A DNA stretch of 60,927 nucleotides, the filler included, from Nitrospinota bacterium (GTDB lineage Bacteria; JADFOP01), in the NCBI GenBank assembly GCA_022562795.1. It is 3 parts of 3 records of this genome, joined end to end, with 100 filler letters (N's around TTAATTAATTAA, not from the genome) between each part and the next. Parts side by side here need not be neighbours in the genome. Positions count along the whole stretch, not along the records: positions 1 to 25,196 come from JADFOP010000003.1; 2 more parts are not named here. One strand, written 5' to 3'. The notes beneath the pieces are model-generated. The model searched no databases. It was not told where the DNA came from and saw only the letters and a list, made by a program, of their open reading frames with translations. Shown one piece after another: positions 2,041 through 25,296 of this stretch; position 1 is the first letter of the stretch, and each line of letters begins with the position of its first letter. A program made the position numbers and the translations under genes.

Positions 2041-2078
2041 AGTCGCTGTTGTCATCCAGAACCCCCGGCGTACCTCCA

Positions 2079-6067: not shown

Positions 6068-7495
6068 ATGACAAGGAAGAAACCATCAGACACGTCGTCT
6101 TTGGGAGGGAGTCCCATGAGGATATCTGTCTCAACCCTCAAAGGCGCACTGGTCGCCGGAGTGGTAGCATCGGCCCTCGCCTTGGTCTCCCCATCAGCGG
6201 CGCAGGCCCAGCAGCACGAAGGGACGCACATGCACGGTGCAGCCCCTCAAGGGACGATAAAATCCGGCGCCAAGCCTCACCATGAGATGCCGCACGGTCA
6301 CATGCAGCATGGGGAGCGGCCCCATGGCGGAATGAAGCATGGCGAGATGATGCACGGCATGGGGCAGCAGGCCGAGATGAAACACGGCGCGATGGGCCAT
6401 GGGGGAATGGCCATGCACCAAGCCACTGGGTGGGAGAATCCCGATATCCCCCCCTCGCCGCCGCCGCCGCTAATGGGCCGGCAGATGGGGCGGGTCGTCG
6501 CTCCCGGAGTACCCCCGCTTGGATACGAAATGGACGGTGACGTCAAGGTCTTCCGCATCGTCGCCCAGCCCGTGAAGATCTTCCTCAACGACGGTCGCTC
6601 GAAAGATGATTCCATCGAAACCATCGTCAATGCAGTAAACCGCTATACGGGCGTGATGATGCACCACCCGGTCTCCCAGCCGGTCCGGGCCTGGGGTTAC
6701 AACGGCACCTCTCCGGGGCCGACCATCGAGGTGACCGAGGGAGACCGGATCCGCATCATCTTGACGAACGAGCTTCCAGAGCCGACATCCATTCATTGGC
6801 ACAGCATTGAGCTGCCCAACTCCCAAGACGGCGCCGGCGGCGACACCGAGCCGCCCACCATGCCCGGCGAGACCCGCGTCTACGAGTTCACCCTCTATCA
6901 GTCGGGGACCTTCATGTATCACACGGGCTTCAACGTGATGAAGCAAGATTCCCTTGGGCTTGGTGGGATTCTCGTCGTCCACCCGAAGAGGCCGAAGCAC
7001 AAAGTAGATAAGGATTTCACCATCATGCTACAGGCGTGGGCGCTCCTGCCAGGTAACCCAAACCCTAACCTCGTAACCATGGACTTCAATTGGTTCACTT
7101 TTAACGGTAGGTCTGCGCCCGACATCCCAGTGCTGACCGTCAAGCAGGGCGAGCGGGTACGCATCCGCATCGCTAACCTGAGCATGGACAGCCACCCCAT
7201 CCACATCCACGGCTACACGTGGAAAGTGGTTGGTACCGAGGGAGGGCCCATTCCCGAGGGTGCCCAATGGCCCGGCACCACCGTCAACGTGGCGCCCGGG
7301 ACGACCCGCGATGTGGAGTTCGTCGCATGGAACCCGGGGGTGTGGCGCTTCCATTGCCACAAGCTCCACCACCTAGTAAACGCCCACGCAGATGTGCCCA
7401 TGGGTGTGATGCCCCACGGAGGGATGTTTACCCTCATCCACGTAATCCCCAAGGACCCGGCTTCCGCCTGGAAGCATCCGAAGCAGAAGGGATAG
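6068..7495 (+). CDS. Two-domain multicopper oxidase with His/Met-rich N-terminal region
   Basis: Signal peptide ending AQA; WGYNGTSPGP; SIHWH; MYHTG; HPIHIHG; WRFHCHKLHH; RBS AAGGAGG (alternative start 6116). Confidence 0.9.
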   Translation: MTRKKPSDTSSLGGSPMRISVSTLKGALVAGVVASALALVSPSAAQAQQHEGTHMHGAAPQGTIKSGAKPHHEMPHGHMQHGERPHGGMKHGEMMHGMGQQAEMKHGAMGHGGMAMHQATGWENPDIPPSPPPPLMGRQMGRVVAPGVPPLGYEMDGDVKVFRIVAQPVKIFLNDGRSKDDSIETIVNAVNRYTGVMMHHPVSQPVRAWGYNGTSPGPTIEVTEGDRIRIILTNELPEPTSIHWHSIELPNSQDGAGGDTEPPTMPGETRVYEFTLYQSGTFMYHTGFNVMKQDSLGLGGILVVHPKRPKHKVDKDFTIMLQAWALLPGNPNPNLVTMDFNWFTFNGRSAPDIPVLTVKQGERVRIRIANLSMDSHPIHIHGYTWKVVGTEGGPIPEGAQWPGTTVNVAPGTTRDVEFVAWNPGVWRFHCHKLHHLVNAHADVPMGVMPHGGMFTLIHVIPKDPASAWKHPKQKG

Positions 7496-7508
7496 GAGAG
7501 CTGAATAG

Positions 7509-9272
7509 ATGAGAACGAAACAGGTTGGAATGGGGCTAGCTATAGCTATCGCCTTCTTGCTCGCGGGCTGCGCAGGCGTCCAGACGGACAAGGAGTGGGG
7601 GCGGGTCGAGACCTTCGTGAAGGAGAGGGCCGGTGCCAAGGCGCGGTGGGAGCAGACGAAGGAAGACGGCCAGGCCACGCATGCCGAGGTCAATGCCATG
7701 CTGGCCGATGGGCTCACCCGCAAGGAGGCGGTGCAGATCGCAATTTTGAATAACCGAACCCTGCAAGCGGCCTTCGAGGAGCTGGGCGTGGCGAAGGCCG
7801 ACCTCGTCCAGGCCGGCTTCTTCACCAACCCAAGAATCGACGGGCTGGTCCGTTTCCCGACCAAGGGCGGCGGGACCAATGTCGAGGCAGGGGGGCTCGT
7901 CAACCTCGCAGACCTCTGGCAGATTCCCCTTCGCAAGCGACTCGCCAAGACCCGCCTGGAGGCCGCGACACTCAGGGTGACGGACGAAGTTTTGAATACG
8001 GTGGCCGAGGCCAAGGGGTTCTACGACGACATTCTTGCCCTGGCCGCCGCTCGGGACGAGACGGCGCGGGTTCTCAAAGCCTTGGAAGATCTGCGCGACC
8101 GGATTGCCCAACGGAAGGAGCATGGCTACACGAGTGACTTCGACGTCGCTTTCGCCCGTGCGGCCGTCTTCGACCAGAAGGCGGCCCTGGTGCGGGTCGA
8201 GGGGGAGTTGCGGGTGGCCAGCACCCGCCTCAGCCGCGTGCTGGGGCTCACCCCGGAGCAGGCCGGGTACACCTTGACCGGTTCGTTGCCGGACGACATA
8301 GGGGGTCCTATCCCAGATACCGAAACCCTGGTGACTCATGCTCTGGCCCAGCGGCCCGACGTCCAGCTGGCGGAGCTGGAGATTTCCATCTCCGAGCGGG
8401 CCATGGCCCTGGAGCAGGCCCGCGTCTTCACCGATATCGAGGCGGGGGCGGCGTTCGAGCGCGAGGCCGAGGGGGGCGAGCTCGTGGGTCCAGCCTTGGG
8501 CCTCCAGTTGCCTGTCTTCGATCAAAACCAGGCCCAGATCGCCAAGGCCGCCTATAGGGTCCGGCAGGCCCAGAAGCAGCGGCAAGCCCTCGTAGGGATG
8601 GTCTACGAGGAGGTGGCCGCCGCCGCCGAGCGCCTCGCCGTGGCCCGCCAAGATGCCATGATCATACGAGACCAGGTTCTGCCGGCCTACCAGGATGCCA
8701 TCGACTACGCGGAGAAATACTCCGGCGCAATGCAGCTCAACATGCTGTTCCTCCTGGAGGCTCGAAAGGAACAGGTCGCCAGCAGCCGCCGATACATCGA
8801 CGCCCTTCGAGAAGCGCGGGCGGCGGAGGTTGACCTGGAGCGGGCCCTGGGCGGAGTCATGCCGAAAGGTGCGATGCAAAGTTCGATGAAGCACGGCCAT
8901 GCGGCTATGCCCCATGTAGTGGTGAGCGCCAAAGGGAGAGCAGCGGCGGGAAAGGCGATTTACCAGCGCCTCTGCGCCTCCTGTCACGGGGCTTCAGGCA
9001 AGGGCGACGGCCCAGTCGGTCGTTCCTTGACCCCAAAGCCTATCGATTTCACAGTCCATTCACGACACCACAATGATGAGTACTTTTTCAAGGCTATCCA
9101 GGAGGGGGGCCCCGCCGTGGGGAAGTCCCCCGTCATGCCTGCGTGGGGTGGCCAGCTAAAAGACGAGGAAATCTGGGACGTTATCAGCTACATTCGGGCT
9201 CTCGTAAAGGGCGAGGGGGAAGCTGGGGGGGATATGCCGGCACACCACCCTCATCACGGGGGCGGTCATTAA
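7509..9272 (+). CDS. TolC-family outer-membrane lipoprotein fused to C-terminal class I cytochrome c
   Basis: Lipobox LAGC; OEP repeats (AILNNRTLQA, RPDVQLA, LPVFDQNQAQI); then GKAIYQRLCASCHGASGKGDG...MPAWG...IWDVISYIR and a His-rich tail in one uninterrupted frame. Confidence 0.9.
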   Translation: MRTKQVGMGLAIAIAFLLAGCAGVQTDKEWGRVETFVKERAGAKARWEQTKEDGQATHAEVNAMLADGLTRKEAVQIAILNNRTLQAAFEELGVAKADLVQAGFFTNPRIDGLVRFPTKGGGTNVEAGGLVNLADLWQIPLRKRLAKTRLEAATLRVTDEVLNTVAEAKGFYDDILALAAARDETARVLKALEDLRDRIAQRKEHGYTSDFDVAFARAAVFDQKAALVRVEGELRVASTRLSRVLGLTPEQAGYTLTGSLPDDIGGPIPDTETLVTHALAQRPDVQLAELEISISERAMALEQARVFTDIEAGAAFEREAEGGELVGPALGLQLPVFDQNQAQIAKAAYRVRQAQKQRQALVGMVYEEVAAAAERLAVARQDAMIIRDQVLPAYQDAIDYAEKYSGAMQLNMLFLLEARKEQVASSRRYIDALREARAAEVDLERALGGVMPKGAMQSSMKHGHAAMPHVVVSAKGRAAAGKAIYQRLCASCHGASGKGDGPVGRSLTPKPIDFTVHSRHHNDEYFFKAIQEGGPAVGKSPVMPAWGGQLKDEEIWDVISYIRALVKGEGEAGGDMPAHHPHHGGGH

Positions 9273-10743: not shown

Positions 10744-11205
10744 CTAACCGACCTTCGCCCCCTTCTCCACGTGCTTCTTAAGAAGTGTTAGTACCGTTTC
10801 GTAGTCCTCTCGGGGCAGCGAGTGTACGTTACCCTGAAAGCCAAGCCGCCAGTGCTCATCGGGCCACTTCTTCAGGTGCTGGAGCTTGTGGCGGATGGGC
10901 TCGACGGCAAGAAAGTCTCCCGCCTCGCAGACAATCTCCGGGCGGACCTCAAACCGGAAGGGGTAAATTTCCTGCTTTTTTCCGCCGTCCCAGACGGGTT
11001 CGTCGCTCTCGAAGAAGGTGCTGGTAACCTCGGCGCATCCTCCGAATGCCTGGACTTTGGTTAGGTAGAAGACCACCTTGTCGCCTGGCTCGACCCGCTC
11101 GGCTTTCTTTCGATGTCGGCTCTTCATCCCCGCGATGTCGAAGCCCCGAGTACGGGAGCGCTCGAAATTTTCTTCCGAGCTTACGAGCATCCAGTAAGTT
11201 GGCAT
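10744..11205 (-). CDS. EVE domain protein
   Basis: YWMLVS, VEPGDKVVFYL, YPFRF, LPREDY; RBS GAGGAGG. Confidence 0.85.
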   Translation of the reverse strand: MPTYWMLVSSEENFERSRTRGFDIAGMKSRHRKKAERVEPGDKVVFYLTKVQAFGGCAEVTSTFFESDEPVWDGGKKQEIYPFRFEVRPEIVCEAGDFLAVEPIRHKLQHLKKWPDEHWRLGFQGNVHSLPREDYETVLTLLKKHVEKGAKVG

Positions 11206-11259
11206 GTCAATGTCCTCCTCAAAGGGTGGTGGATAAGGGAAGCTTAGAACCTCCTCGCC

Positions 11260-12390
11260 TCATGACCTCCAGAATGGAAAGAGTTTTTGTTTGTGGTGCG
11301 TGATGATGCGGTCGGCCTCGGCTTTTGCTTCGGTGACCATATCGGGCCGGCCTGGAAAGGGAGCGTCACGGAGCTTGGAGCCTTCGAGACCCATCCGGCC
11401 GAGAAGTGCCACGAAATCCTCTGGTAAAGAGTCGGGAGGGTCGGCGTCGTTGAACATCGCCCAGGCAAGCGTCCAGGCCCGGGCCACGTTGACCATGTCG
11501 TAGCCCCCGCCGCCCAGGGCCAGGAGTTTCGGGGCCAGTCCCATAATCTCGTGGACCATTTCGCAAAATCCGTTTGTCGTGCAATCGAGCTGGGCGAGGG
11601 GGTCGGAGTGGAAGGTGTCCACACCGAGCTGGGCCACCACGATGTCTGGCCGGAAGGCCCTAACCAGCGGAACGATGCCCTCCTTGAATGCCCCCACGAA
11701 GACGGCGTCGGTGCTGTGGGGGAGGCAAGGAATGTTGACACAATAGCCCACTCCTTGACCTTCACCGATCTCATCCTCAAATCCCGTCTGAGGGAAGAAA
11801 TACCGGCCCGACTGGTGGATGCTGGCGGTAAAGACTCGGCTGGTGTCGTAGAAGATGTTCTGGACTCCGTCACCGTGGTGGGCGTCGATGTCGATGTAGG
11901 CCACCCTCCAGCCCTGCTCCGTTAGCCAGCGGATGGCGATAGCGGCGTCGTTGAGGTAACAGAAGCCGCTGGCCCGCTCCGGCATTGCGTGGTGGAGGCC
12001 GCCGGCGATGCTGAAGGCGATGTCCACCTCACCCTCGTAGAGGAGTCGGGCTCCCATGATGGAGCCGCCGGAAGACAGGAGCGACCAGTCCCAAAGCCCC
12101 GGGAAGACGGGGTTATCGCCGGGCCCCAGGCCGTAGTCGTGGGCGCCCCGCGTCATCTTCCCGTTATTGACTGCCTGAAGGACATCGACGTACCTATGGT
12201 CGTGGACCGTGAGGACGTCGTCAACTGAGGCCGCTTCGGTCTCAATTAGGCGAGACCCTGTAAGCTCGAAAAGCCCGTAAGAGCGCACGAGCTCGTAGGT
12301 GAGCTTCAACCGCACGGTCTTCATGGGATGGGCTGAGCCGTAATCGAACCCAGCGAGCCGGTCGGTGTAAATGAACGCTGTTGACGCCAC
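11260..12390 (-). CDS. acuC: AcuC-type Zn-dependent deacetylase (HDAC family)
   Basis: HPMK, GGLHHA, SGFCYLND, DIDAHHGDGVQ, QLGVDT..DPL, GGGGY. Confidence 0.9.
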   Translation of the reverse strand: MASTAFIYTDRLAGFDYGSAHPMKTVRLKLTYELVRSYGLFELTGSRLIETEAASVDDVLTVHDHRYVDVLQAVNNGKMTRGAHDYGLGPGDNPVFPGLWDWSLLSSGGSIMGARLLYEGEVDIAFSIAGGLHHAMPERASGFCYLNDAAIAIRWLTEQGWRVAYIDIDAHHGDGVQNIFYDTSRVFTASIHQSGRYFFPQTGFEDEIGEGQGVGYCVNIPCLPHSTDAVFVGAFKEGIVPLVRAFRPDIVVAQLGVDTFHSDPLAQLDCTTNGFCEMVHEIMGLAPKLLALGGGGYDMVNVARAWTLAWAMFNDADPPDSLPEDFVALLGRMGLEGSKLRDAPFPGRPDMVTEAKAEADRIITHHKQKLFPFWRS

Positions 12391-12400
12391 GGTTTCTGCG

Positions 12401-13237
12401 CTACCTCTTATGCGCTCCGATAGCCGGGAACGTGCAGACTGCGGCGTCGACCCCGAACCACTTGATCATTCTTGGCGAGACCCACTCATCGCCGAGAATA
12501 CCGTCGTGAATGGCCCATGTGCGGCCAAAGACGGTCTCACCGGCGCCTGGCCGGCGGAAGATGGTCGAGCCATCAAGGAGAGTGTCGAGGGCCCCTCCGG
12601 GCTGGAAGCCTTCGTGGATTTCCCGCATGAGCTTCTTCCCGGCGATGTAAGTGAATCCGTACTTCTCGTAGAGAATGGCGTTGGAGTAAAAGAGGGCCCG
12701 AAGCGTGATGAGCTTCTTGCCGAGAGCCGCGAAGAGGTCCTCAGCCCTCGGCAGGAACTTTGAGAAAAGTCCGAGCCCTGAGCGGACTTGGCCCGGAAAG
12801 AGCCCCGAGTGGAATGCCTTCTCCTCTTCCTCGAGGTTCCTGCGGTGGGAGCCTAAGTCGGTGGGCCGCCCCTCGTCGTCCTTGTCGATGTGGAAGCGGG
12901 GGCTCATCGGGTCGTTGATGGTGATGAAGGTGAGCTCGATATTGTTGACTGTCCGCTCGGTCATCTCCACCAGGAAGATGCAATCCACATCGTCCGGCTG
13001 GTGGCGGACCTCTATCCGAAAGCCCAGGACCCTCGGCGGGCAGACGTAGGTGACCACCCGTTGCCCGGCGGCGTTTAGGCCTGTGGCCGGGTCGATGTCG
13101 AACCGCGTGAAAACCTCCTCCGGGATGAGCTCCCGGTAGAAACTCTCGCGGCGCTCTGAAGGAAGGTCGTTTATCTGGTTGATGGACGTGATGGTCACGC
13201 CATCAACGGTCAGGGTGGAGAGGAGCTCTTTGAGCAT
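12401..13237 (-). CDS. Divergent GNAT-like protein, probable partner of AcuC
   Basis: GQVRSGLGLF resembles the acetyl-CoA loop; NAILYEKYGF resembles the GNAT C-terminal motif; 10 nt upstream of acuC. Confidence 0.55.
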   Translation of the reverse strand: MLKELLSTLTVDGVTITSINQINDLPSERRESFYRELIPEEVFTRFDIDPATGLNAAGQRVVTYVCPPRVLGFRIEVRHQPDDVDCIFLVEMTERTVNNIELTFITINDPMSPRFHIDKDDEGRPTDLGSHRRNLEEEEKAFHSGLFPGQVRSGLGLFSKFLPRAEDLFAALGKKLITLRALFYSNAILYEKYGFTYIAGKKLMREIHEGFQPGGALDTLLDGSTIFRRPGAGETVFGRTWAIHDGILGDEWVSPRMIKWFGVDAAVCTFPAIGAHKR

Positions 13238-13313
13238 GGGGTTTGACCGTCCATCGTTCGAGGGTCATTCACCATATCACATTACCCAGGGCGAGCCAAC
13301 GACGGTGGCGGCC

Positions 13314-13342
13314 TTGACACCCCCGAGGCCCTGCCGTAGAAT
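13314..13342 (+). promoter_or_regulatory. Sigma70 promoter P1 of U32 operon
   Basis: TTGACA-17 nt-TAGAAT. Confidence 0.65.
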
Positions 13343-13427
13343 AGCACGCCGATTCTAAAACCACGCGCCCCGCACCCTGCAGGGTTGAAGTCGTTGAAAT
13401 GATTGACCGTGGACCTGCGTCACTTGC

Positions 13428-13457
13428 TTGACAGGAGCGAGAGACGCTTTGTATAGT
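13428..13457 (+). promoter_or_regulatory. Sigma70 promoter P2 of U32 operon
   Basis: TTGACA-18 nt-TATAGT. Confidence 0.6.
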
Positions 13458-13474
13458 GTTCCGTTGGGTCGATT

Positions 13475-13492
13475 CTGTAATTTGGTTCACAG
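13475..13492. promoter_or_regulatory. CRP/FNR-family- or Rex-like operator
   Basis: cTGTAA-tttggt-TCACAg, 9/10 match to TGTGA-N6-TCACA, lying between P2 and the RBS. Confidence 0.5.
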
Positions 13493-13516
13493 TAGGTGGG
13501 CGTTGGGAGGCGCTTC

Positions 13517-14374
13517 ATGCCCGTTATTGTAGCCCCGTGTGGGCGGTCGGACGCCGCCGAGACGCTCCTTGCCGCAGGCGCCGATGGCCTTTATGTAGGC
13601 ATGACCAGCCTCTCCCACGGCCGCCGGGGCGCCGAGTTATCGCTCGCATGCATCGAGGCCGTATGTCGGACGGCCCGGGCCTGGGACGCTTTTGTCCTGC
13701 TCAGCCTTAACCTCATGCCCCTCGTGGCCGAAGAGCCACTATGGCGCTCGGTCGTGGCTGAAACAGTCGAGCTAGGCGTTGACGGGGTCATTCTTCAGGA
13801 CCCTGGTCTGGCCGTGGACCTTCGCCGCATCCACCCGCGGCTCGCCATCCACGTCTCTGTAGGGGCGGCGGCCCTTAACGCCGCCGACGCCCGTTTCTGG
13901 CGCGAGGCGGGGGCCGACGTGCTGGTGCTCCAGCCGGGGACCACGCCCGAAGAGGCGGCCTCCATACGTCAAGACGGCGGGATCGAGGTGGAGCTCTTCG
14001 TCTCGGGTCGTACCTGCCAGGCGACCCTCCTAGGCCAATGCGGTATGGGTAACTACTTGAAGCAGGTCTGGAAGTCATCCGGCTGGCGCGATGAGATCCC
14101 CGAAGGGAGCCGAAAGCGGAGCGGAGTATGTTACTACGTTTGCGAGGGCGCGTGGGAGGAGGACGGTGACCCCATCGGGAAGTGGGGCCCGGTGCCGATC
14201 GAGCTTGGGGCCCCTCTGGCGGACTACCTCGCGGCTGGAGTGACGCATCTTAAGCTGGGCGGGCGCGGCAGGCCCGTCGCCGAACTCGCAGGTGAAATTC
14301 GATCCGTCCGCCAGGTGGTGGATGAGGAGGAGTGGCCGAGCAGTTATGCCCTCACTGGCAACACACGTTCCTAA
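13517..14374 (+). CDS. U32-family Fe-S protein 1 (UbiU-like core, divergent)
   Basis: IVAPCG, AGADGLYVG, GVILQDPG, IHVSV, C-x7-C...C-x3-C, LKLGGR; start at the ATG after GGAGG. Confidence 0.85.
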   Translation: MPVIVAPCGRSDAAETLLAAGADGLYVGMTSLSHGRRGAELSLACIEAVCRTARAWDAFVLLSLNLMPLVAEEPLWRSVVAETVELGVDGVILQDPGLAVDLRRIHPRLAIHVSVGAAALNAADARFWREAGADVLVLQPGTTPEEAASIRQDGGIEVELFVSGRTCQATLLGQCGMGNYLKQVWKSSGWRDEIPEGSRKRSGVCYYVCEGAWEEDGDPIGKWGPVPIELGAPLADYLAAGVTHLKLGGRGRPVAELAGEIRSVRQVVDEEEWPSSYALTGNTRS

Positions 14375-15317
14375 TCTGAGACGGCTGGAGGCCTGCGACT
14401 GGTCGGCCTTCGATACCCTCTTTCTTGGGGATCCCTCGTGCCATCTCTACCCGGACAACTTCGCCCGCTACGTGGATGAGCTTGCCGTTGGAGTTGAGAT
14501 GGTCAAGTCCTGGGGTAAGCGGGCCATCCTGAGCCTGTACGCCGTTCCACGCAACGATGACCTGCCGTGGATACGAGCCCTGCTGGAAGGCGCCATTGAG
14601 CGCCGTCTTCCGCTCGATGGAGTTGAGGTTCATAACCTTGGCTTGCTCGTCATCCTTCGAGAGCTGAGCAACCCTTGGCCTGTAACAATCGGGGTCTGTG
14701 GCAACCTCTACACCGTTGCGACGGCCCGGGTGCTGGCCGAATACGGTGTGGTGGACGGCTTCCCCAATCCGGAGGTCGGCTTGCCCGAGGTCGCGGAGCT
14801 GGTTCGAGACGGGGGGATCGGGGTCATCCTTCAGGTTCACGGCAAAATCCCCCTGGGATTTAGCGATAAGTGTTTCGTTGTTGACTATCAGAAGCAGGAA
14901 GGGACCTGCGAGGAGGTATGTTTTACCGATCATTGGTTGACCCGCGACGGCTGGACGCTCAAGAACATCGGAAGGGTCGTCTTAAGCGGGAAGGACCTTT
15001 GCATGATCGAACACCTGCCGGACCTGCTCGAGGAGGGCCACCGGCATTTCTACATCTGGACGTTTGCCGAGTCGCCCGAATATGTGGCGGCTATCGGGGG
15101 GCTCTACCGCGAGGCCCTTGAGGAGGCCTTCTCCGGAAGTGCGGACTACCGTTTGCGGCCTGAGTGGGAAGAGACCATCCGGCGCTTCGCTCGTGTCGGG
15201 CTCTGCAACGGCTTTTACTTCAACACGACGGGGCAGTCTTACGTGGGCGCCCTCGATGGAGAATCGACCGAGGGGCTCCGACCGGCCGAACACATCCCGG
15301 GTCAGTCGAGAGCCTAG
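14346..15317 (+). CDS. U32-family Fe-S protein 2 (UbiV-like)
   Basis: LFLGDPSC, VEVHNLG, HGKIPLGFSDKC...CEEVC, GKDLC, C-terminal CNGFYF; overlaps gene 1. Confidence 0.85.
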   Translation: MPSLATHVPNLRRLEACDWSAFDTLFLGDPSCHLYPDNFARYVDELAVGVEMVKSWGKRAILSLYAVPRNDDLPWIRALLEGAIERRLPLDGVEVHNLGLLVILRELSNPWPVTIGVCGNLYTVATARVLAEYGVVDGFPNPEVGLPEVAELVRDGGIGVILQVHGKIPLGFSDKCFVVDYQKQEGTCEEVCFTDHWLTRDGWTLKNIGRVVLSGKDLCMIEHLPDLLEEGHRHFYIWTFAESPEYVAAIGGLYREALEEAFSGSADYRLRPEWEETIRRFARVGLCNGFYFNTTGQSYVGALDGESTEGLRPAEHIPGQSRA

Positions 15318-15491
15318 GCGACGCCACTAACACATCCTGTGGCGTTGAGGCTTACACAGCACCATCAGATTCAGCGGAGGGGGTGCTTCCGCCGCACCTT
15401 ATGCCCGGCGGACGCCTCGGATGGTCCCGCCGACACATCGGGCGGGTTCCATCGCGCATGCTCCTGCTGAGCAAAGCGAGGTTTGAAGAGA

Positions 15492-16472
15492 ATGGCCAAA
15501 TTACTTGCTCCGGGCGGGAGCGTCGAGATGGCGCTGGCCGTCTTGGAGGCCGGTGCCGAGGCCGTCTACGTGGGCCCGTTGGGCTGGAGCCGCCGGGTGT
15601 CCCGGTATGAATTGGACGACGAGGCCATCCGGGAGGTCTGCGCATACGGCCGGGCACACGGAAAAGAGGTCCGTCTCGCCTTCAATACGACCCCCGCTTC
15701 CTCTGAGATTCCGACCATGGTTGAGAAGATCGACCAGTACGTTGAGTGGGGAGCCAACGGGCTAATCATGGCTGACCCGGGCGCCATCGCCGTCGTCCGC
15801 CGCCGGCATCCCGACATAGCCATCCACGCCAGCGTCGCGGCGACCATTATCAACGAGGCCGACATCGCCTTCTTCCGAGACATAGGAGTGACAGTGGTTG
15901 TCGTTCCCAGCAAGCTTTCGTTCACCGAGGTGCGGGAGTTCAAGGAGCGGCTGGGGGTGCAGCTAGAGGTCTTCCTCCACTCGAACCACTGCTACACGTA
16001 TCTCGGTCGGTGTCAGATGTCGAGCTACTTCAACCACCGATTCACCGAGACGGACGAGCACAAGCAGCTCTTCCTAGGCAGCCCTAACCGAGGTGGATTC
16101 TGCCACCGGGTCTGTAAGGGCAAGTGGACCTGGAGCGAGAGCGGGACCGTCCGGAATGAGTCGGTGACCATGCCTAATATCGCCATCCTGGGGTTCAACT
16201 CGATTCCCGCTTACATCGACATAGGGGTTGAGTACCTGAAGATTCAAGGCAGGGAATTCAGCCTGCCCCTTATCATCGACATCGTTCGGTTCTACCGAGA
16301 GTTGATTGACTACTGCCGCTCCGCTCCTCGCCCCATCTCCCTCTCCCGCTACCAGCCGCGGCTGCTGGGTCTCCTCCGCCAGCGGGACGAGGAGCGGGAG
16401 TCCCGCACAGAGGCGCTTCTCCAGGTGGCGGTGGAGGACACCCCGCTGCCAGCCGTAGGGGTCGTCGACTGA
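15492..16472 (+). CDS. U32-family Fe-S protein 3 (UbiU-like core)
   Basis: LLAPGGS, AGAEAVYVG, ADPG, IHASV, C-x6-C (HCYTYLGRCQMSSY), GSPNRGGFCHRVC, LKIQGRE. Confidence 0.9.
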   Translation: MAKLLAPGGSVEMALAVLEAGAEAVYVGPLGWSRRVSRYELDDEAIREVCAYGRAHGKEVRLAFNTTPASSEIPTMVEKIDQYVEWGANGLIMADPGAIAVVRRRHPDIAIHASVAATIINEADIAFFRDIGVTVVVVPSKLSFTEVREFKERLGVQLEVFLHSNHCYTYLGRCQMSSYFNHRFTETDEHKQLFLGSPNRGGFCHRVCKGKWTWSESGTVRNESVTMPNIAILGFNSIPAYIDIGVEYLKIQGREFSLPLIIDIVRFYRELIDYCRSAPRPISLSRYQPRLLGLLRQRDEERESRTEALLQVAVEDTPLPAVGVVD

Positions 16473-16593
16473 ACTAAAGAAACGCGTCCCTTGGTCTTCA
16501 TCTCGGGGCTCCTGGGGTGAGGGCCAGGGGCTCGTCTCTGTCTGGTGATTCCGACCCTAGAGCGCCGCATTCACGTCGGAGGGCTGTTGGCCG

Positions 16594-17055
16594 GTGTCTG
16601 AAGAATTCTCATCCAGCTGCGACCCCGAAGCTTTCTCCCGCATAAAGGCGCTACTGGAAAAAAGCGCCTTCGTCCGCCACTGCGGCCTCCTCCTGGAGAA
16701 CCTTGAGGCGGGCCGGTGCGAGCTTCGCTTGCCCCTTGAGGCCGTCCATGCCAATGCCTACGGCTCCCTTCATGGTGGGCTGGTGGCCACATTGGTCGAT
16801 ACCGTCAGCGGTGTGGCCGCCTGGACCCTGGCGGATTCGAACGAGCGGGTCTCCACGATGGAGCTGAAGGTGAATTTCATAGCCAGTGTGGCGCCCATGG
16901 AGGGCGAGCTCAGGGCCCTTGGGGTGGTGCTTCATCGGGGTAGGACCACGGCCGTCGTTGAAGCCGACGTGAACGACTCAGAGGGCCGAAGGGTCGCCCG
17001 TGGCCTGGGGACTTTTATCTATCTGGCGCGCAAGGGGGAGGCCGCCGATGGGTGA
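16594..17055 (+). CDS. PaaI-family hotdog thioesterase
   Basis: NAYGSLHGGLVATLVDT, TMELKVNF, HRGRTTAV. Confidence 0.9.
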   Translation: MSEEFSSSCDPEAFSRIKALLEKSAFVRHCGLLLENLEAGRCELRLPLEAVHANAYGSLHGGLVATLVDTVSGVAAWTLADSNERVSTMELKVNFIASVAPMEGELRALGVVLHRGRTTAVVEADVNDSEGRRVARGLGTFIYLARKGEAADG

Positions 17056-17689
17056 GGAGCGCTACGACGAACGGGTGGTTGGCTTAACTGGGGGGCTTGC
17101 GACAGGAGCCTCCACAGTGGCTGGGATGCTCACCGAATGCGGGGCCCTCATGGTAGACGCCGACGAGATTGTTCATTGGCTGGAGGGACCTGCCACGTCG
17201 GTCACGCTGGCCATCGCCGAACGCTTCGGCCCAGAAGCTCTCGATGCCGACGGGCGGGTCGACCGGGCGTGGCTGGGCCCACGGGTGTTTGAAGACCCTG
17301 AGGCTCTGCGAGATTTGGAAGCGATCGTTCACCCTGAGGTGGTGGCTGAAAGCCGCCGCCGAATCGAATCGCTCCGGGCCGCCGACCCTGATGCGCTCAT
17401 CATCTACAACGCGCCTCTGCTGATAGAGAGGGGGGCCTACAAGCGGTTCCTGACAATCATAGTCGTATACGTCGACGACGCCACACAGCTTAAGCGCCTC
17501 ATGGCCCGTGATGGGCTCTCGCGCCCCCAGGCGCTCAAACGGCTCGCCGCCCAGATGGCTCCCTCGGCCAAACAGGCCTACGCCGACGTCGTCATCGACA
17601 ACACGGGAAGCATCGAGGAGACACGCGCCCTGGTGGAAGCCATCCACCGCGAGCTCATGAGCAGGCCCCTGCTGTTGCGAAAGGATTGA
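17048..17689 (+). CDS. coaE: Dephospho-CoA kinase homolog, Walker A Lys replaced by Ala
   Basis: GLTGGLATGAST, DADEIVH, LEAIVHPEV, PLLIE, RLMARDG, ADVVIDNTG. Confidence 0.85.
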   Translation: MGEERYDERVVGLTGGLATGASTVAGMLTECGALMVDADEIVHWLEGPATSVTLAIAERFGPEALDADGRVDRAWLGPRVFEDPEALRDLEAIVHPEVVAESRRRIESLRAADPDALIIYNAPLLIERGAYKRFLTIIVVYVDDATQLKRLMARDGLSRPQALKRLAAQMAPSAKQAYADVVIDNTGSIEETRALVEAIHRELMSRPLLLRKD

Positions 17690-17751
17690 GTCACAACGAC
17701 GGTTGCGCTATACTCCATCGCCGCCGCACATTATTTCGAGGAGAGGACTTT

Positions 17752-18630
17752 ATGCTGTTGAAAGAGGAACGGGATAAAATTCTCAAAGAGATTGTCGGTC
17801 GGGAAAAGGAAGTCACAAATATTCTGGCCACTCTACAGGCGGGAAAGCACATCATCCTCGAAGGGGCGCCTGGGACGACGAAGTCAACCATCCTACGGAC
17901 CATCACGAAGGTGCGGGATGTTCCCTTCTACCTCATTGAGGGCAATATCGACCTAACCCCCTCGAAGCTCGTCGGCCACTTCAACCCTTCCAAGGTCATG
18001 GCCGACGACTATCGGGTTGAGTACTTCGAGAAGGGCCCGTTGACCTACGCGATGGAGGGGGGCTTTCTCTACATCGAGGAGTTCAACCGGATGCCGGCCG
18101 ATACGGCCAACGTCCTCATTAGTGCGATAGAGGAAGGCGAGATACAAATCCCCCGCTATGGGCCCGTAAAAGCCACGGGCGAGTTCCGGGTCATCTGCGC
18201 CCAGAATCCCTACGACGATGTCGGGACAATGCGGGTTTCCCGGGCCATTTACGACCGGTTCTGCCGCGTTAAGCTCAACTACCAGAACTTGGACGAAGAG
18301 CTCGATATTGTCACCTCCCAGTCTGATTCCGATGATCGTGAGCTCATCGACGTGGCGGTCCGCATTGCCCGCGATACGCGGACACACAGCGATGTCAAGC
18401 AGGGCGCTTCCATTCGGGGTGCTCTCGACATGGTGGCCATCGCCGAGGAGCTATTTAAGGTCTCTTCAGCGGATCGGTCCCAGGTGATGGATGATGCCAT
18501 GCTATCTTCCATGAGCGGCAAGGTCTGGCTCCAGGAGACCACCGAGCGGCCAGCCGAGGAAATTCTCCGGGAGATCCTAAAGAAGGTGCTGGCCAAGAAG
18601 GAGGCCGATGCCAAGGGGCTGTCCCAATAG
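17752..18630 (+). CDS. MoxR-family AAA+ ATPase
   Basis: IVGREKE, Walker A GAPGTTKS, Walker B YIEEFNR, AQNP, RAIYDRF, ASIRGA; start after GAGGAG. Confidence 0.9.
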   Translation: MLLKEERDKILKEIVGREKEVTNILATLQAGKHIILEGAPGTTKSTILRTITKVRDVPFYLIEGNIDLTPSKLVGHFNPSKVMADDYRVEYFEKGPLTYAMEGGFLYIEEFNRMPADTANVLISAIEEGEIQIPRYGPVKATGEFRVICAQNPYDDVGTMRVSRAIYDRFCRVKLNYQNLDEELDIVTSQSDSDDRELIDVAVRIARDTRTHSDVKQGASIRGALDMVAIAEELFKVSSADRSQVMDDAMLSSMSGKVWLQETTERPAEEILREILKKVLAKKEADAKGLSQ

Positions 18631-18648
18631 GGACGCCCCCTCCGTGCT

Positions 18649-19515
18649 ATGTCTAGGCTCACGGGCATCTTCTACCACGAGAGCTTCAGCCGCAGCAGCT
18701 ACCTGACCGTCGGCGCTCGACTGGCCGACTTCCCAGAGGCTTTCGACCCCCTTCTCGCCCACGAAAACGTACGCATCTTCGAGAGCCAGCCCGTCTCTCG
18801 AGAGCTGATCCTTTCGGTTCATACCCCGGGGCTCATAGAGGGGGTCAAGGGCGACCCCCTTTGTTCGACCGCATGGCTCTCCGCTGGCGGCTGCGTTGAG
18901 GCGGGAGAGCGCATCACCTCCGGGGAGCTTCGAAACGCCTTCGTCACCATCGGAGCCGGCGGCCACCACGCGGGGTTCGACTACTTTGGAGGCTACTGCT
19001 GCTTCAACGACGTGGCGCTCACCATCTCCCGGCTCCGGGAGCGAGGCCTCGCCCACCGATTCGCTGTCGTGGACACCGACGCACACCACGGAGACGGAAC
19101 CCGCCAGATTTTCGATGACGACCCCGACGTGCTCCATATCTGCTTCTGCGGCACTAGCTGGGAGTCTCAAGACGGGACCAAGGTCGATGTCAATATCCCC
19201 TGGTTTTCCGGGCGGCGGTCCGATAACGATGCCCCGTATCTGGAGCTGATCGACGAGCACGTCCCTAACCGCGTGCGGTCCTTTGGCCCGGATCTCCTCT
19301 TTTGGTACTTTGGGTTCGACACCCACCACGGCGACTACGGCTCTATAGGCCTGACCGGCGATTGTTTCTTCTCCATATGTGATATTATGATGGGCCTGGC
19401 CGACGAAGCGTGCGGCGGTCGGCTGGCGGTCGTCCTGGGTGGCGGCTCTCGTACGGACATCGCCACGGCGACCATTCCCGAGATTATCCGTCGCCTGGCA
19501 GGCCTCGCCACCTAG
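18649..19515 (+). CDS. HDAC-family metallohydrolase, atypical (GGGS in place of GGY)
   Basis: GGHHAG, GGYCCFND, DTDAHHGDGT, GFDTH, VLGGGS. Confidence 0.85.
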   Translation: MSRLTGIFYHESFSRSSYLTVGARLADFPEAFDPLLAHENVRIFESQPVSRELILSVHTPGLIEGVKGDPLCSTAWLSAGGCVEAGERITSGELRNAFVTIGAGGHHAGFDYFGGYCCFNDVALTISRLRERGLAHRFAVVDTDAHHGDGTRQIFDDDPDVLHICFCGTSWESQDGTKVDVNIPWFSGRRSDNDAPYLELIDEHVPNRVRSFGPDLLFWYFGFDTHHGDYGSIGLTGDCFFSICDIMMGLADEACGGRLAVVLGGGSRTDIATATIPEIIRRLAGLAT

Positions 19516-19550
19516 AGCCCGCTCTGCGCCCGAGGCGCCAGGGAGCCCCC

Positions 19551-20603
19551 ATGGTCACCGTCCGAGAGGCCACAGCCGCAGACAATGACGCCCTCATCGC
19601 CCTCGACCACCAGTGCACAATGGGCGAAGCCATGACTCTCGCCTTCGACCGCGCCCCAGACTTCTTCGCCCGCCATAAGGTCTACGAGCGGTGGACGGCC
19701 CTGGTGGCCGAGGCTCCCGACGGCGCCCCCGTCGGAACTGGGAGCATGGCGCTGAAGACCCTCCTTGTGGGGGGACGGCCCGTAGAGGCGGCCTACCTGA
19801 TGGACCTTCGTGTTCACCCCGACTGGCGCCGCCGGGGGGTCGGCCGGGCCATCGGTGACGCCTTGCGCGACCGACTTATCAAGGCTGCCCCCGCCTTTGC
19901 CTACCTCATGGTTCTCAAGGGCAACGAGCCCTCCCTAAGCTTCGTTCGCAATCGGGGAGTTTACACCTCTCTCGGAAAGGTAACCCTGCCGGTCCTTGTC
20001 CCCGAGGACCTCCCGGCCCTGCCGACAGGCATCGAGGTCCGCCCGCTCGCCGCCGAGGATATGCCGTGGCTCGCCGAGCGATGGAAGGCCTGTACGGCTG
20101 GGTGGTCCCTCGCCCTGCCCATTGAGGCTGGAGGCATTGAGAGATTGGTCGCCGAACGCTTGGAAGTCCCACCCGACGACCGGCTCGTCGTACTCGACGA
20201 GGGGGCGCCAATCGGAGCGGCGGCCCTGTGGGATTACTCCCGAATAATGTCCATTACCTTCGTCCGCCTGCCAGAAGAGATCGACCGGCGATTGTCACCT
20301 TCCCTTCGGGCGCGCCTCGGCGGAGGCGAACCCTTCCGTCTCTACTACCCCCTGCCGTTGGTATGGCGTAGCCTGGAGGACCTACCGGCGATTACGGCGG
20401 CTCTGCTCACCTACCTGGCGGACAAGCACGCGGGGGAGCAGAGCGCAACCACCTTGTGGATGCCCATGGACTCCGCCGGCCCCATGGCTTCCCTGGTGGT
20501 GCCGAAGGCGGCCTTCGCCGTCGAGATGGACCTCTTCGGAGTGGCCATCCGGGGTAGCCTGCCTACTCAAGGGCCCTTTTTCATCGACCCCCGGGATATT
20601 TAA
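19551..20603 (+). CDS. GNAT acetyltransferase, probably tandem-domain
   Basis: AYLMDLRVHPDWRRRGVG, LKGNEPS; second GNAT-like half starts at IEVRPLAAED. Confidence 0.8.
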   Translation: MVTVREATAADNDALIALDHQCTMGEAMTLAFDRAPDFFARHKVYERWTALVAEAPDGAPVGTGSMALKTLLVGGRPVEAAYLMDLRVHPDWRRRGVGRAIGDALRDRLIKAAPAFAYLMVLKGNEPSLSFVRNRGVYTSLGKVTLPVLVPEDLPALPTGIEVRPLAAEDMPWLAERWKACTAGWSLALPIEAGGIERLVAERLEVPPDDRLVVLDEGAPIGAAALWDYSRIMSITFVRLPEEIDRRLSPSLRARLGGGEPFRLYYPLPLVWRSLEDLPAITAALLTYLADKHAGEQSATTLWMPMDSAGPMASLVVPKAAFAVEMDLFGVAIRGSLPTQGPFFIDPRDI

Positions 20604-20630
20604 GACGGGCGCCGCCGGGCGTTTTCCCCG

Positions 20631-20659
20631 TTGACTTTCCTCCGTATTGCGTGTAAGTT
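20631..20659 (+). promoter_or_regulatory. Putative sigma70 promoter for MoxR-VWA gene
   Basis: TTGACT-17 nt-TAAGTT. Confidence 0.4.
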
Positions 20660-20728
20660 CTTAAAAAACTGGGGTCTTTACCCGTTTTGATAAGCGCACC
20701 ACTATTGCCCCATCTCCCAGAGGTACCC

Positions 20729-22666
20729 ATGTCCCAAGGAAACGGGCACTACCTGCGTCATCTGCCCACCATAGCGGCTCAGATTGTCGGGCGGGATCAC
20801 GAGATCGAGACTATCTTGGCCACCCTGGCAGCGGGCAAGCACATAATCCTCGAGGGTCCGCCAGGCACCACCAAATCGACCATCCTCAGGGCCATCACCG
20901 AGGCAGTGGGCCTGCCCCTCTACTACGTTGCTGGGAGCGGTGATTTGACCCCTTCCAAGCTCATCGGCCACTTCAACCCCGCCCACGTAATGAAAGACAC
21001 CTACCACCCGGACCACTTCAATGAGGGCCCCCTCATGCATGCGATGCGGGGTGGCTTTCTCTTCATCGAGGAGTTTAACCGGGTGCCGCCCGACACAGCC
21101 AACGTGCTCATAACGGCCGTTGAGGAAGGTGAGCTCACCATCCCCCGCTACGGCACCATCTTCGCTGACCCCGACTTTCGCGTAATCTGCGCCCACAACA
21201 CGCTCGATGACGTCGGGACCGTCCGAATCAGCCGGGCCCTATACGATCGGTTCTGTTGCCTTAGGATGGACTACCAAAGCCAGGAGGAGGAACTTGAGGT
21301 CTTGAGCCGCAGCGTGGGTGACGCCGACGAGACCATCAACCTCGTTGCCGTCCATCTGGTGCGCGCCACCCGCCGGCACAAGGAGATCAGGCAGGGCGCG
21401 AGCATCCGGGGAGCCATCGACATGGTGACGCTCTTCCACGGCCTCGGCCTCCTCTCGGACCTCTCTTACATCGAGAGGATGGAGGAGGCCATGCTCATGG
21501 GGCTCTCCAGCAAGGTCTGGCTCTCGGACGCCTGTACGCGCATGCCCGAGGAGGTGCTGAACGATATCCTCGACCAGGTGCTAATGTCCTTGGAATTGGA
21601 AGGCCTAGAGAAGTCGTTCGCCTTCGGCGCCGCCTTTCGGCTAGACGAAGATAAGGGCGAGGAGGAGGGGTTCAGGGATGATGTTGAGGTAGACGACAGC
21701 CTACCTAAAAGCGATCCTATGGGGCAGAAGCGCGAGATTGAGGTCCCTGTGGATGAGAAGGACCTCGCCGATGAGCTTAAGAAGCGGGCCAAGGATAACC
21801 CTGAGGAGGTCTCCCGCTTCCTCAACCAGCACCCGGAAATCGCAGCTCGGATTTTGGCGAGCCCGGACGTGCTGGAGATGTACAGCTACATCAAGGATAA
21901 ATTGGACGAAGAGCTGAAGGAGGCGGCGAAGCGGTACGCCAGCCGCCTCATCATTAAGATTGCCACGAAGATTGCCAGCTTGGGTGTGAAGAGCGGCAAC
22001 CTTGAGGCTGTTGCAGACTACCTGGCCAGTGACGAGATTGAGATCGACAAGACTTTGGAGCGCATTGTGGAGCGGCCCACCGAGAGCATTGAGGACAACC
22101 TCGTCGTGCTGGCCCGAAAGCCTGAGCGGAAAGGGTGTGTTGTCATCCTCGACCATTCCTCCAGCATGCAGGGGATCAAGGTGTCTATCGCAGCGCTGAC
22201 GGCGGCCACCATTGCGCTCCACTTCAAGGAGAACTACGGAGTGGTGGCATTTGCAACGAGGGCGACCCTCCTGAAACGGATCACCCAAACCGTTGCACCC
22301 ACTGTGGTGGCCGAGGAGGTGCTCTCGCTCGATGCCCGAGGTTACACCAACATCCGAGAGGCTCTCCAGCTGGCCCTCGGAGAGGTGCGCTCCTATGATC
22401 ATAAGATCGGTATCCTGCTGACTGACGGCGACTGGACTTACGGGGGCGATCCCCTCCAGATGGCCCGGCTCTTCGATCGCTTACATGTCATTGGGCTGGA
22501 AGACCCCCACGCTTACCAAGACTTCTACGCCAGCGACGGCCGGTTCCACCAGACCCGCTACGGCAGCCGCATCGAGGTGCTGGCCAAAGAAGGCAGGGGC
22601 ATGTTCGCCTACGTGAGGACCATCGACGAGGTGCCCCTCGCGCTGACGCGTTGCCTGACAAGTTGA
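20729..22666 (+). CDS. MoxR AAA+ ATPase fused to VWA (MIDAS) domain
   Basis: GPPGTTKS, FIEEFNR, RALYDRF; acidic linker; VILDHSSSM (DxSxS), GYTNI, LLTDGD. Confidence 0.9.
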   Translation: MSQGNGHYLRHLPTIAAQIVGRDHEIETILATLAAGKHIILEGPPGTTKSTILRAITEAVGLPLYYVAGSGDLTPSKLIGHFNPAHVMKDTYHPDHFNEGPLMHAMRGGFLFIEEFNRVPPDTANVLITAVEEGELTIPRYGTIFADPDFRVICAHNTLDDVGTVRISRALYDRFCCLRMDYQSQEEELEVLSRSVGDADETINLVAVHLVRATRRHKEIRQGASIRGAIDMVTLFHGLGLLSDLSYIERMEEAMLMGLSSKVWLSDACTRMPEEVLNDILDQVLMSLELEGLEKSFAFGAAFRLDEDKGEEEGFRDDVEVDDSLPKSDPMGQKREIEVPVDEKDLADELKKRAKDNPEEVSRFLNQHPEIAARILASPDVLEMYSYIKDKLDEELKEAAKRYASRLIIKIATKIASLGVKSGNLEAVADYLASDEIEIDKTLERIVERPTESIEDNLVVLARKPERKGCVVILDHSSSMQGIKVSIAALTAATIALHFKENYGVVAFATRATLLKRITQTVAPTVVAEEVLSLDARGYTNIREALQLALGEVRSYDHKIGILLTDGDWTYGGDPLQMARLFDRLHVIGLEDPHAYQDFYASDGRFHQTRYGSRIEVLAKEGRGMFAYVRTIDEVPLALTRCLTS

Positions 22667-24821: not shown

Positions 24822-25187
24822 TTAGTCCTGAGTGGGCAGGTCCGTTTGAGCGACGCTGATCCAAGGCAGACAAATGGGCTGGCGTTGGGAGGAGAAACCC
24901 ATCTCCGGTGGAATGAACGCCCCGAACGGACATACTCCACACAGAGCGCCCTCGTGGCCGCAGGTCTCGACGAGCGTCGTCTCTCCAGCCTCGGAGCCCC
25001 CGAACTTCTCTCGGATTGAGTCGATAAGCCCATGTATCTCCTTTTCGGTTGGCTCCGGTACCTCATGGATGAGGTTCCGTTGTAAGACGGCCAAGTCGAG
25101 GAGAATCACCGGCAGTTCCTCCTTGTTTTGTTCCAGGCGGCTAAGGAACTCCTCGGTTAAGCGCCCGCTTTCGGTCCTCTCGGTCAT
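24822..25187 (-). CDS. Hypothetical protein with Cys cluster
   Basis: Helical N-terminus then C-x6-C-x2-C-P...C; 11 nt upstream of the TPR gene. Confidence 0.6.
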   Translation of the reverse strand: MTERTESGRLTEEFLSRLEQNKEELPVILLDLAVLQRNLIHEVPEPTEKEIHGLIDSIREKFGGSEAGETTLVETCGHEGALCGVCPFGAFIPPEMGFSSQRQPICLPWISVAQTDLPTQD

Positions 25188-25196
25188 GACGGCTCC

Positions 25197-25296
25197 NNNN
25201 NNNNNNNNNNNNNNNNNNNNNNNNNNNNNNNNNNNNNNNNTTAATTAATTAANNNNNNNNNNNNNNNNNNNNNNNNNNNNNNNNNNNNNNNNNNNN
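25197..25296. other. Artificial contig linker
   Basis: N44-TTAATTAATTAA-N44, stops in all six frames. Confidence 0.98.

Follow-up and report, generated by a model that had tools for sequence, protein, structure and literature searches.

According to the available text of two accounts of the U32 proteins, only three functions are established in this superfamily, those of UbiUV, TrhP and RlhA, and most of its twelve subfamilies are uncharacterised (PMC10990095, PMC11574389). UbiU and UbiV (YhbU and YhbV of E. coli) are core-only U32 proteins of ~300–330 aa encoded by side-by-side genes; they form a heterodimer, the O2-independent ubiquinone hydroxylase, work with UbiT, are reported to perform three ring hydroxylations (Pelosi 2019, 10.1101/587956), and prephenate is described as their oxygen donor (PMC10990095). 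TrhP (YegQ, 453 aa) and RlhA (YdcP, 653 aa), which form 5-hydroxyuridine in tRNA (ho5U34) and 5-hydroxycytidine in 23S rRNA (ho5C2501), are single proteins with C-terminal extensions, which in RlhA include DUF3656. Here, we analyse three adjacent U32 genes, g1, g2 and g3 (the triad), of a Nitrospinota bacterium (assembly GCA_022562795.1), located in a window, that is, the whole stretch of DNA analysed, of 60,927 nucleotides. Their products share the core-only size and the side-by-side gene arrangement with UbiU and UbiV, and the U32 TIM-barrel core and the Cx6C...Cx3C motif with TrhP and RlhA. We consider, with a probability of about one half, that g1, g2 and g3 are the subunit genes of a single O2-independent Fe-S hydroxylase of the U32 type, which belongs to a distinct and widespread sister family of UbiU/UbiV.

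Placement of the triad in the U32 superfamily

The genes g1 (13517–14374, 285 aa), g2 (14346–15317, 323 aa) and g3 (15492–16472, 326 aa) are all on the plus strand. PF01136 (Peptidase_U32) is the sole Pfam domain in each product, with scores of 83.1, 86.9 and 136.3 bits, respectively, above the gathering cut-off of 22.4 bits. The longest forms of the open reading frames (ORFs) begin further upstream (g1, 13496–14374, 292 aa; g2, 14292–15317, 341 aa; g3, 15483–16472, 329 aa), and the ATG starts at 13517, 14346 and 15492 agree with the N-termini of homologues. An earlier note, made from the sequence alone, had described three co-oriented core-only U32 genes of 285–326 aa, each with a four-Cys set, and the domain matches, ATG starts and Cys motifs confirm this description.

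RlhA is defined, in the part of Kimura 2017 (PMC5727448) that treats it, as a U32 domain with DUF3656, and no second Pfam domain was found in g1, g2 or g3. All three proteins also score far below the NCBIfam cut-offs of the described families. For UbiU (NF047963), g1 and g3 reach 80.4 and 130.4 bits against a cut-off of 440, and for UbiV (NF047965), g2 reaches 43.4 bits against 275. For TrhP (NF011996), the scores of g1, g2 and g3 are 78.4, 48.4 and 146 bits against 534, the last being the top NCBIfam match of g3, and these matches are confined to positions 5–200 of the 449 in the model.

Two trees were computed, with no inference of the root. The quick tree (75 rows) contained the window proteins together with E. 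coli UbiU, UbiV, TrhP and RlhA (the latter two cut to 330 residues). Two proteobacterial genomes contributed their canonical UbiU/UbiV pairs, TrhP and RlhA, 17 triad loci contributed their U32 genes, and there were six further TrhP/RlhA-like proteins, including a two-gene pair of Paenibacillus (locus L045) which we take to be YrrN/YrrO-like. For the careful tree (58 rows × 322 columns), 25 rows were dropped, including the long-branched first Paenibacillus gene, and eight Nitrospinota orthologues were added to break the long g1 branch. In the careful tree, g1 and g3 lie in a triad U-like clade (100/100, ultrafast bootstrap/SH-aLRT) that joins canonical UbiU at 98/92, and canonical UbiU, represented by E. 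coli and two proteobacteria, forms its own clade (100/100) with g1 and g3 outside. In the same way, g2 lies in a triad V-like clade (100/99), which joins canonical UbiV at 99/96, and is outside the clade of canonical UbiV (100/100). The g1 lineage groups with the first genes of the class II triads described below (97/89), and thus the split between g1-type and other U-like genes is older than the split between Nitrospinota and class II. Support for grouping g3 with the other U-like genes is low (88/63), and the tree resolves no nearest sister of g3. In both trees, the window proteins form clades separate from TrhP and RlhA, and the Paenibacillus pair groups with the TrhP-like proteins, away from the triad clades; B. 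subtilis proteins are absent from the tree. The triad is therefore placed outside the canonical UbiU, UbiV, TrhP and RlhA clades, as the tree proposed in the earlier note was meant to decide.

The Cys patterns agree with this placement. The cluster-type Cys residues of g2 are C32 (LGDPSC), C176 (SDKC) and C188-x3-C192 (CEEVC), and they align with C39, C180, C193 and C197 of UbiV, which the relevant part of Pelosi 2019 (10.1101/587956) gives as cluster ligands defined by mutagenesis. These four positions of E. coli UbiV align with Cys in all 30 V-type sequences, g2 included, so that the UbiV relationship of g2 is supported independently of the tree. The common layout is a first cluster Cys far upstream, followed by C-x11/12-C-x3-C. 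On the other hand, the triad V-likes differ from UbiV in two extra invariant Cys residues, C219 and C287 of g2, which are Cys in 27/27 triad V-likes and each in only one of three canonical UbiV sequences. The motifs of the U-like proteins are C167-x7-C175-x29-C205-x3-C209 in g1 and C167-x6-C174-x29-C204-x3-C208 in g3. In UbiU, by contrast, the pattern is Cx6Cx16Cx38C (C169, C176, C193 and C232); the fourth Cys of g1 and g3 lies 3 residues past the third, not 38. Compared with TrhP, RlhA and UbiU, all U-like members of the family carry extra residues between Cys2 and Cys3; this insertion measures ~18 residues against UbiU and is longer in the first gene of class II. As judged from these alignments, all three window proteins keep four-Cys sets of the kind that binds [4Fe-4S] in UbiU and UbiV. 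The careful tree and the Cys patterns together uphold the order U-like, V-like, U-like assigned to the genes in the earlier note.

Predicted structures were obtained with AlphaFold for g3 (pLDDT, the predicted local distance difference test, 79.3) and g2 (76.4). Both consist of alternating strands and helices, and their Cys-rich loops are of low confidence, with residues 167–204 of g3 below a pLDDT of 50. The best solved fold match of the g3 model is the U32 peptidase Mk0906 (PDB 5D88; Foldseek E 1.7e-9, template modelling score 0.48/0.61), the only solved U32 domain found, at 14% sequence identity, followed by generic TIM barrels. A profile search of the PDB with the g3 alignment found no sequence at E ≤ 0.001, and a sequence search with g2 gave only weak matches to IMPDH (E 0.003–0.006).

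Conservation of the triad and its variants

Relatives of g2 were collected in two scans. Species-representative genomes were scanned by exact peptide patterns; that no Nitrospinota species was returned reflects a limit of this method and is no evidence of absence. Four loci were found at 43–46% identity, in an alphaproteobacterial metagenome-assembled genome (MAG), Georgfuchsia, Motiliproteus sediminis and Neptunomonas. The remaining matches were at most 28% identical, and the lower matches L005, L012, L022, L025, L035, L060 and L073 are TrhP-like, with 37–39% identity to E. coli TrhP. In the metagenome scan with the g2 alignment, 461 stretches matched, 300 of them encode a relative, and 80 loci were kept. 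The synteny sample thus comprises 84 loci, many of them incomplete at their ends.

Exactly one V-like gene is present in each of the 84 loci. A U-like gene lies directly 3' of it in 62 of the 63 loci with sufficient downstream DNA and 5' of it in 50 of the 57 with sufficient upstream DNA. Where at least 900 nt are available on both sides, the order is U-V-U in 39 of 45 loci; a fortieth, L123, deviates only apparently because the ORF caller fused two genes, and the other five show V-U-U or V-U-x-x-U. Unlike in UbiU-UbiV, each single UbiV-like gene is accompanied throughout by two or three UbiU-like paralogues, which diverged long ago. The U-V-U order is ancient and widespread, and the module is a member of a large multi-phylum family and not special to this genome. 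The question raised in the earlier note, whether the triad is syntenic elsewhere, is thus answered positively in many genomes and metagenomes. No description of the U-V-U arrangement, or of a function for this clade, was found in the literature searched.

Among Nitrospinota-lineage relatives, gene adjacency was read from the order of NCBI accessions rather than from the sequences. Consecutive accessions run through the upstream ORF, g1, g2, g3, PaaI and CoaE in several assemblies (clusters of at least 90% identity), and those of g3 and g2 are consecutive in a further five, less closely related assemblies, whose g2 and g3 clusters are 81% and 85% identical to the window proteins. The homologues of g1, g2 and g3 at 69–76% identity are presumably linked to each other as well. 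The source names of near-identical and related proteins are Nitrospinota or Nitrospinae bacterium and, once, Candidatus Tectimicrobiota. The labels among relatives include Nitrospinota, Tectimicrobiota, NC10, Acidobacteriota, Deltaproteobacteria, Eremiobacterota and one Thermoplasmata MAG, and 886 g3-like proteins were found at E ≤ 1e-30.

The closer relatives of g2 and of g3 are 71–97% identical to them, and g1 has 12 homologues at 69–97% identity. In an alignment of g1 with nine full-length homologues, 111 positions are invariant, including the four motif Cys residues and two additional ones, C8 and C50. Compared with a 97%-identical copy in L081, the ratio of non-synonymous to synonymous substitution rates (dN/dS) of g1 is 0.14 (21 synonymous and 9 non-synonymous differences), and that of g2 in the same comparison is 0.17 (26 and 15). 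All three window genes are under purifying selection. The earlier note had named decay of g1 as a recent duplicate as part of the grounds for giving up its proposal; the homologues, the intact frame, the invariant Cys residues and the low dN/dS show that g1 is not such a duplicate.

The related loci fall into three classes. In class I, assigned to Proteobacteria by the names of matching proteins, four U32 genes occur in the order U, V, U, NMT1-like gene, U. They are accompanied by a HisC/PtaA-like aminotransferase, often a PvdO-like protein with an FGE-sulfatase domain, an SDR, a 4-OT-type tautomerase, an FAA-hydrolase-family protein, an EntS-like MFS transporter, and an 874-aa PPDK_N/PEP-utilizer protein, whose best matches, none of them reaching the cut-off, are to the models of PEP synthase, PigC/RedH and Rph. 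An example is L002:4832–15406, with TonB upstream, and others include L003, L097, L111, L115 and L119. Over the 84 loci, the NMT1-like gene was counted 29 times, the aminotransferase 23 times and the dikinase-like gene 25 times. As far as its gene content indicates, the class I cassette resembles a biosynthetic gene cluster whose product would be a secreted aromatic with hydroxyl groups, and O2 may not be needed to make it. Phenylpyruvate, which is expected to arise from prephenate as a by-product, could also be processed by the aminotransferase and tautomerase. Class Ib, the Methylomirabilis form (94% identical to M. lanthanidiphila), has the order V, U, U, NMT1-like gene, U. Class II consists of the triad only, as in the window, with variable flanks: MarR or IclR regulators, two CoA-transferase III genes, an AMP-binding ligase, Peripla_BP_6 binding proteins, and a GNAT/ADP-forming acyl-CoA synthetase.

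The Cys sets vary among these classes. The window proteins g1 and g3 and their Nitrospinota orthologues retain four of four motif Cys residues. In class II triads, motif Cys1 is missing from the first U-like gene and motif Cys3 from the third, with all four retained in the V-like gene; these losses are complementary in L133, L139, L142, L143, L146, L151 and L160. In each class II U subunit, one site of the cluster may be open or have a ligand other than Cys. In class I U-like members, a shifted CxxxC replaces Cx6C. These mixed patterns fit the account of the PepU32#6 subfamily (Kimura 2017), whose Cys residues are described as only partly conserved and whose reference is D5MIQ1_9BACT of Methylomirabilis (Pelosi 2019, 10.1101/587956, in the part concerned). 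The adjacent accession, D5MIQ2, is the V-like protein of the Methylomirabilis cassette, and its adjacency suggests that D5MIQ1 is a U-like member of the triad family.

Surroundings of the triad in the window

Downstream of g3 lie a PaaI/4HBT hotdog-fold thioesterase gene (16594–17055, plus strand, 153 aa; PF03061, 50.2 bits; TIGR00369, 76.3 bits) and a CoaE (dephospho-CoA kinase) gene (17048–17689, plus strand; PF01121, 168.5 bits; TIGR00152, 140.7 bits against a cut-off of 65.55), both as read in the earlier note. The CoaE ORF has an alternative start at 17000, and the form of 213 aa from the ATG at 17048 matches a database record exactly; it overlaps the PaaI stop codon by 8 nt. g1 and g2 overlap by 29 nt, in contrast to the g2–g3 spacer of 174 nt (15318–15491), which has no match in Rfam and lacks sites resembling promoters or terminators. 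Upstream of g1, a GGGAGG ribosome-binding site lies 8 nt 5' of the ATG, and two sigma-70-like sites on the plus strand each match the promoter consensus at 11/12 positions: TTGACA-17-TAGAAT at 13314–13342 and TTGACA-18-TATAGT at 13428–13457, the latter 60 nt 5' of the ATG. Such sites number three in 13100–17800, against 0.5 expected from shuffles. The earlier note had let the first gene begin at 13314; since a stop codon lies immediately 5' of 13496, this start is impossible, and 13314 is the first base of the first promoter-like site. A simple terminator scan of 13100–17800 gave no site, against 3.3 in shuffles, and none between g3 and the PaaI gene; because the pattern is simple, this absence is weak evidence for a single transcript. 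Rfam gave only two matches in 13000–17800, both at chance level.

Contigs from two metatranscriptome libraries, 90–98% identical to the window, cover g2, the g2–g3 spacer (15041–15464), g3, the g3–PaaI spacer (16439–16589), the PaaI gene and the CoaE gene; none lies over 13600–14475, and they are uninformative on g1. They give a hint that g2 through CoaE are transcribed with both spacers read through, a weak one because such libraries can contain DNA and the contigs carry no strand. The PaaI gene may be co-transcribed with the triad. The stretch or part of it was found in 20 of 24 listed public runs, 17 of which hold at least half of its words. These runs come from 12 studies, and their labels are sediment, marine sediment, marine or unspecified metagenome, in keeping with a habitat poor in O2.

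The earlier note had further suggested that the thioesterase may release the substrate of the triad from a CoA ester; a link of the thioesterase and CoaE to the triad finds no support beyond close relatives. The PaaI gene adjoins g3 only in near-identical relatives (clusters of at least 90% identity, by consecutive accessions). When PaaI, CoaE, the conserved 278-aa ORF upstream of g1 and HDAC were sought in all ORFs of the 84 loci, none was found beside a triad except the 278-aa ORF in L081; an HDAC-domain protein lies ~4 kb from the triad in L138. The thioesterase is at most a weak lead to function.

The window was represented by 51 non-overlapping ORFs of at least 100 aa, of which 50 were scanned, 24874–25248 being left out; for 18577–19329 (minus strand), the overlapping ORF 18649–19515 (plus strand) was scanned instead. 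Among these ORFs, there is no SCP2/UbiT or ubi domain, no UbiA-type prenyltransferase, UbiD/X, methyltransferase or mqn/men gene, and no quinone, prenyl, shikimate or aromatic-catabolic gene. Thus, unlike UbiUV, the triad has no ubiT or ubi gene near it, and within the window the earlier statement that neither ubiT nor an extra domain besides U32 is present is correct. The window contains HDAC-like deacetylases, GNATs, MoxR/VWA ATPases, cytochrome c maturation genes, MreBCD/RodA/PBP2, RelA/SpoT, an ADP-forming acyl-CoA synthetase, haem genes and an RND pump. None of the NMT1-like, aminotransferase, dikinase, FAH, tautomerase, CoA-transferase, AMP-ligase, MarR, Peripla_BP_6 and MFS partners of classes I and II was found in it; the sole match to the partners of relatives is a generic SDR at 30917–31654.

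Acetylation-type genes flank the triad at 10744–13237 and 17686–22666. These flanks contain HDAC-like deacetylases (11260–12390 and 18649–19515), a GNAT (19410–20603), an EVE-domain protein and two MoxR AAA+ genes, one of them fused to VWA. The 278-aa ORF (12401–13237) has no Pfam match and a weak lead to GNAT (0.82; the clusters are otherwise unnamed). A Pat-like GNAT/acyl-CoA synthetase lies ~3–6 kb from the triads in L139 and L146. At 48222–50526, the window encodes a split ADP-forming acyl-CoA synthetase, with a CoA-binding/Succ_CoA_lig subunit and an ATP-grasp_5 subunit, and the domains of this enzyme are fused to GNAT near the class II triads in the same two loci.

Other features are found farther from the triad. 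The first 2 kb of the window have a G+C content of 47.9%, against ~60% elsewhere, and are followed by a fused restriction-modification methylase of the Eco57I/MmeI type (884 aa); 1–4733 may be an acquired island at the window edge. At 6068–9272, a multicopper oxidase gene is followed by a gene for an OEP-type outer-membrane efflux protein that carries a fused cytochrome c domain at its C-terminal end. At 53046–54452, a 145-aa ORF matches only the end of MoCF_biosynth and MoeA_C, and the neighbouring ferrochelatase ORF (272 aa) covers positions 2–220 of the 317 in its profile; both may be truncated or frameshifted.

Possible functions of the triad

If g1, g2 and g3 form one hydroxylase, either as a heterotrimer or as the alternative heterodimers envisaged in the earlier note, g2 would be the common partner, possibly for electron transfer. 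g1 and g3 would be catalytic subunits with specialised roles, each hydroxylating a single substrate at a different position or at a different stage of its conversion. The substrate may be a soluble aromatic or otherwise activated molecule, and prephenate could serve as the oxygen donor, as in UbiUV. In this Nitrospinota bacterium, the substrate is probably neither ubiquinone nor RNA; the quinone or aromatic precursor envisaged in the earlier note can only be conjectured. No U32 protein in anaerobic aromatic degradation was found among the papers listed in a literature search.

Several observations weigh against this interpretation. Activity, substrate or complex has been demonstrated for no member of the triad clade, and the housekeeping genes of the window give no hint of a substrate. 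Canonical UbiV sits on a very long branch (3.16) in the tree, and the outgroup sample is thin, short of all 12 U32 subfamilies of Kimura 2017. In pairwise BLASTP, g1 and g3 score higher with E. coli TrhP (91 and 110 bits) than with UbiU (52 and 98 bits), and g2 scores higher with RlhA (61 bits) than with UbiV (36 bits), so that the position as sister to UbiU/UbiV rests on the tree and the Cys pattern. Finally, since class II triads have lost Cys residues, cluster binding may differ within the family.

The three proteins may instead be Fe-S TIM-barrel enzymes that do not hydroxylate but, for example, dehydrate an acyl-CoA or organic acid, oxidise it in another way or carry out C-C chemistry on it. 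In vitro hydroxylation has been shown for no U32 protein according to the available text of PMC10990095 and PMC11574389, class II triads repeatedly have genes for CoA-transferase III, AMP-binding ligase and ADP-forming acyl-CoA synthetase/GNAT in their vicinity, the thioesterase and CoaE genes lie 3' of the window triad, and the U subunits of some relatives are down to three Cys each, a number also seen in enzymes whose iron site is open. However, the CoA-related neighbours differ between lineages, and all three genetically established U32 functions are O2-independent hydroxylations (PMC10990095, PMC11574389, Pelosi 2019, Kimura 2017). We consider such a reaction unlikely, if the best placed of the alternatives.

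Slightly less probable is that the triad is a tRNA or rRNA hydroxylase, a multi-subunit counterpart of TrhP/RlhA or of the two-gene system of B. subtilis, presumably YrrN/YrrO (TrhP1/TrhP2). The BLASTP scores and the top NCBIfam match of g3 would fit such an enzyme, as would the housekeeping character of the window, with its CoaE, cell-shape and cytochrome c maturation genes, and a two-U32 system for ho5U is reported in B. subtilis (PMC6599085, in the part available). The tree, however, separates the triad from E. coli TrhP and RlhA, from six TrhP/RlhA-like proteins (seven in the quick tree) and from the Paenibacillus pair (both genes in the quick tree, only the second in the careful tree). 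The C-terminal part of TrhP and the DUF3656 of RlhA are absent from the window proteins. Moreover, the triads of relatives lie beside transporters, solute-binding proteins, MarR/IclR regulators and CoA enzymes, which suggests small-molecule metabolism.

A little more doubtful still is a role in the O2-independent synthesis of a prenylated quinone or aromatic lipid, in which the triad would be the equivalent of UbiUV for a non-ubiquinone quinone of Nitrospinota. The sister relationship of the triad clades to UbiU and UbiV and the three ring hydroxylations reported for UbiUV speak for this role. In addition, the available part of PMC11874023 leaves the C1 hydroxylase of the methyl-plastoquinone pathway of Nitrospirota unresolved, and thus quinone hydroxylases remain to be found. 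Against it stands the lack of SCP2/UbiT, prenyltransferase, UbiD/X, methyltransferase and mqn/men genes, which holds for the window ORFs scanned and also for the neighbours scanned in relatives, comprising 16 gene clusters and 13 single ORFs. Three proteobacterial genomes (G001–G003) keep a canonical UbiU/UbiV pair in addition to the cassette, with a TrhP-like gene also in G001 and an RlhA-like gene in G002; the cassette is therefore not their ubiquinone system. That the proteins are ordinary U32 peptidases (collagenase-like proteases), as the source annotations "putative protease" and "peptidase U32 family protein" would have it, or that g1 is a decaying duplicate, is highly improbable given the invariant cluster-type Cys residues, the characterised relatives, which are Fe-S hydroxylation factors, and the conservation of g1 described above.

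Returning to a single O2-independent hydroxylase, a broader and more tentative proposal is that the triad represents a third, modular class of O2-independent hydroxylases, in which one UbiV-like protein would serve two or three UbiU-like catalytic subunits and successive prephenate-derived hydroxyls would be placed on soluble aromatic metabolites. The cassette of Proteobacteria and Methylomirabilis, with its PvdO-, PtaA-, PigC/Rph- and EntS-like proteins, might then build a secreted catechol- or chromophore-type compound without oxygen, and the two-U form of Nitrospinota might make or modify a core metabolite.

The module defines a large sister family of UbiU/UbiV with a fixed architecture of one V and several U subunits. 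Since the Nitrospinota version consists of three genes and has all twelve cluster Cys residues, it is a simple candidate for expression. If the triad does hydroxylate small molecules with prephenate, such modules would provide compact soluble systems for the in vitro assay still missing in the field, and oxygen-free hydroxylation would extend well beyond quinones and RNA.

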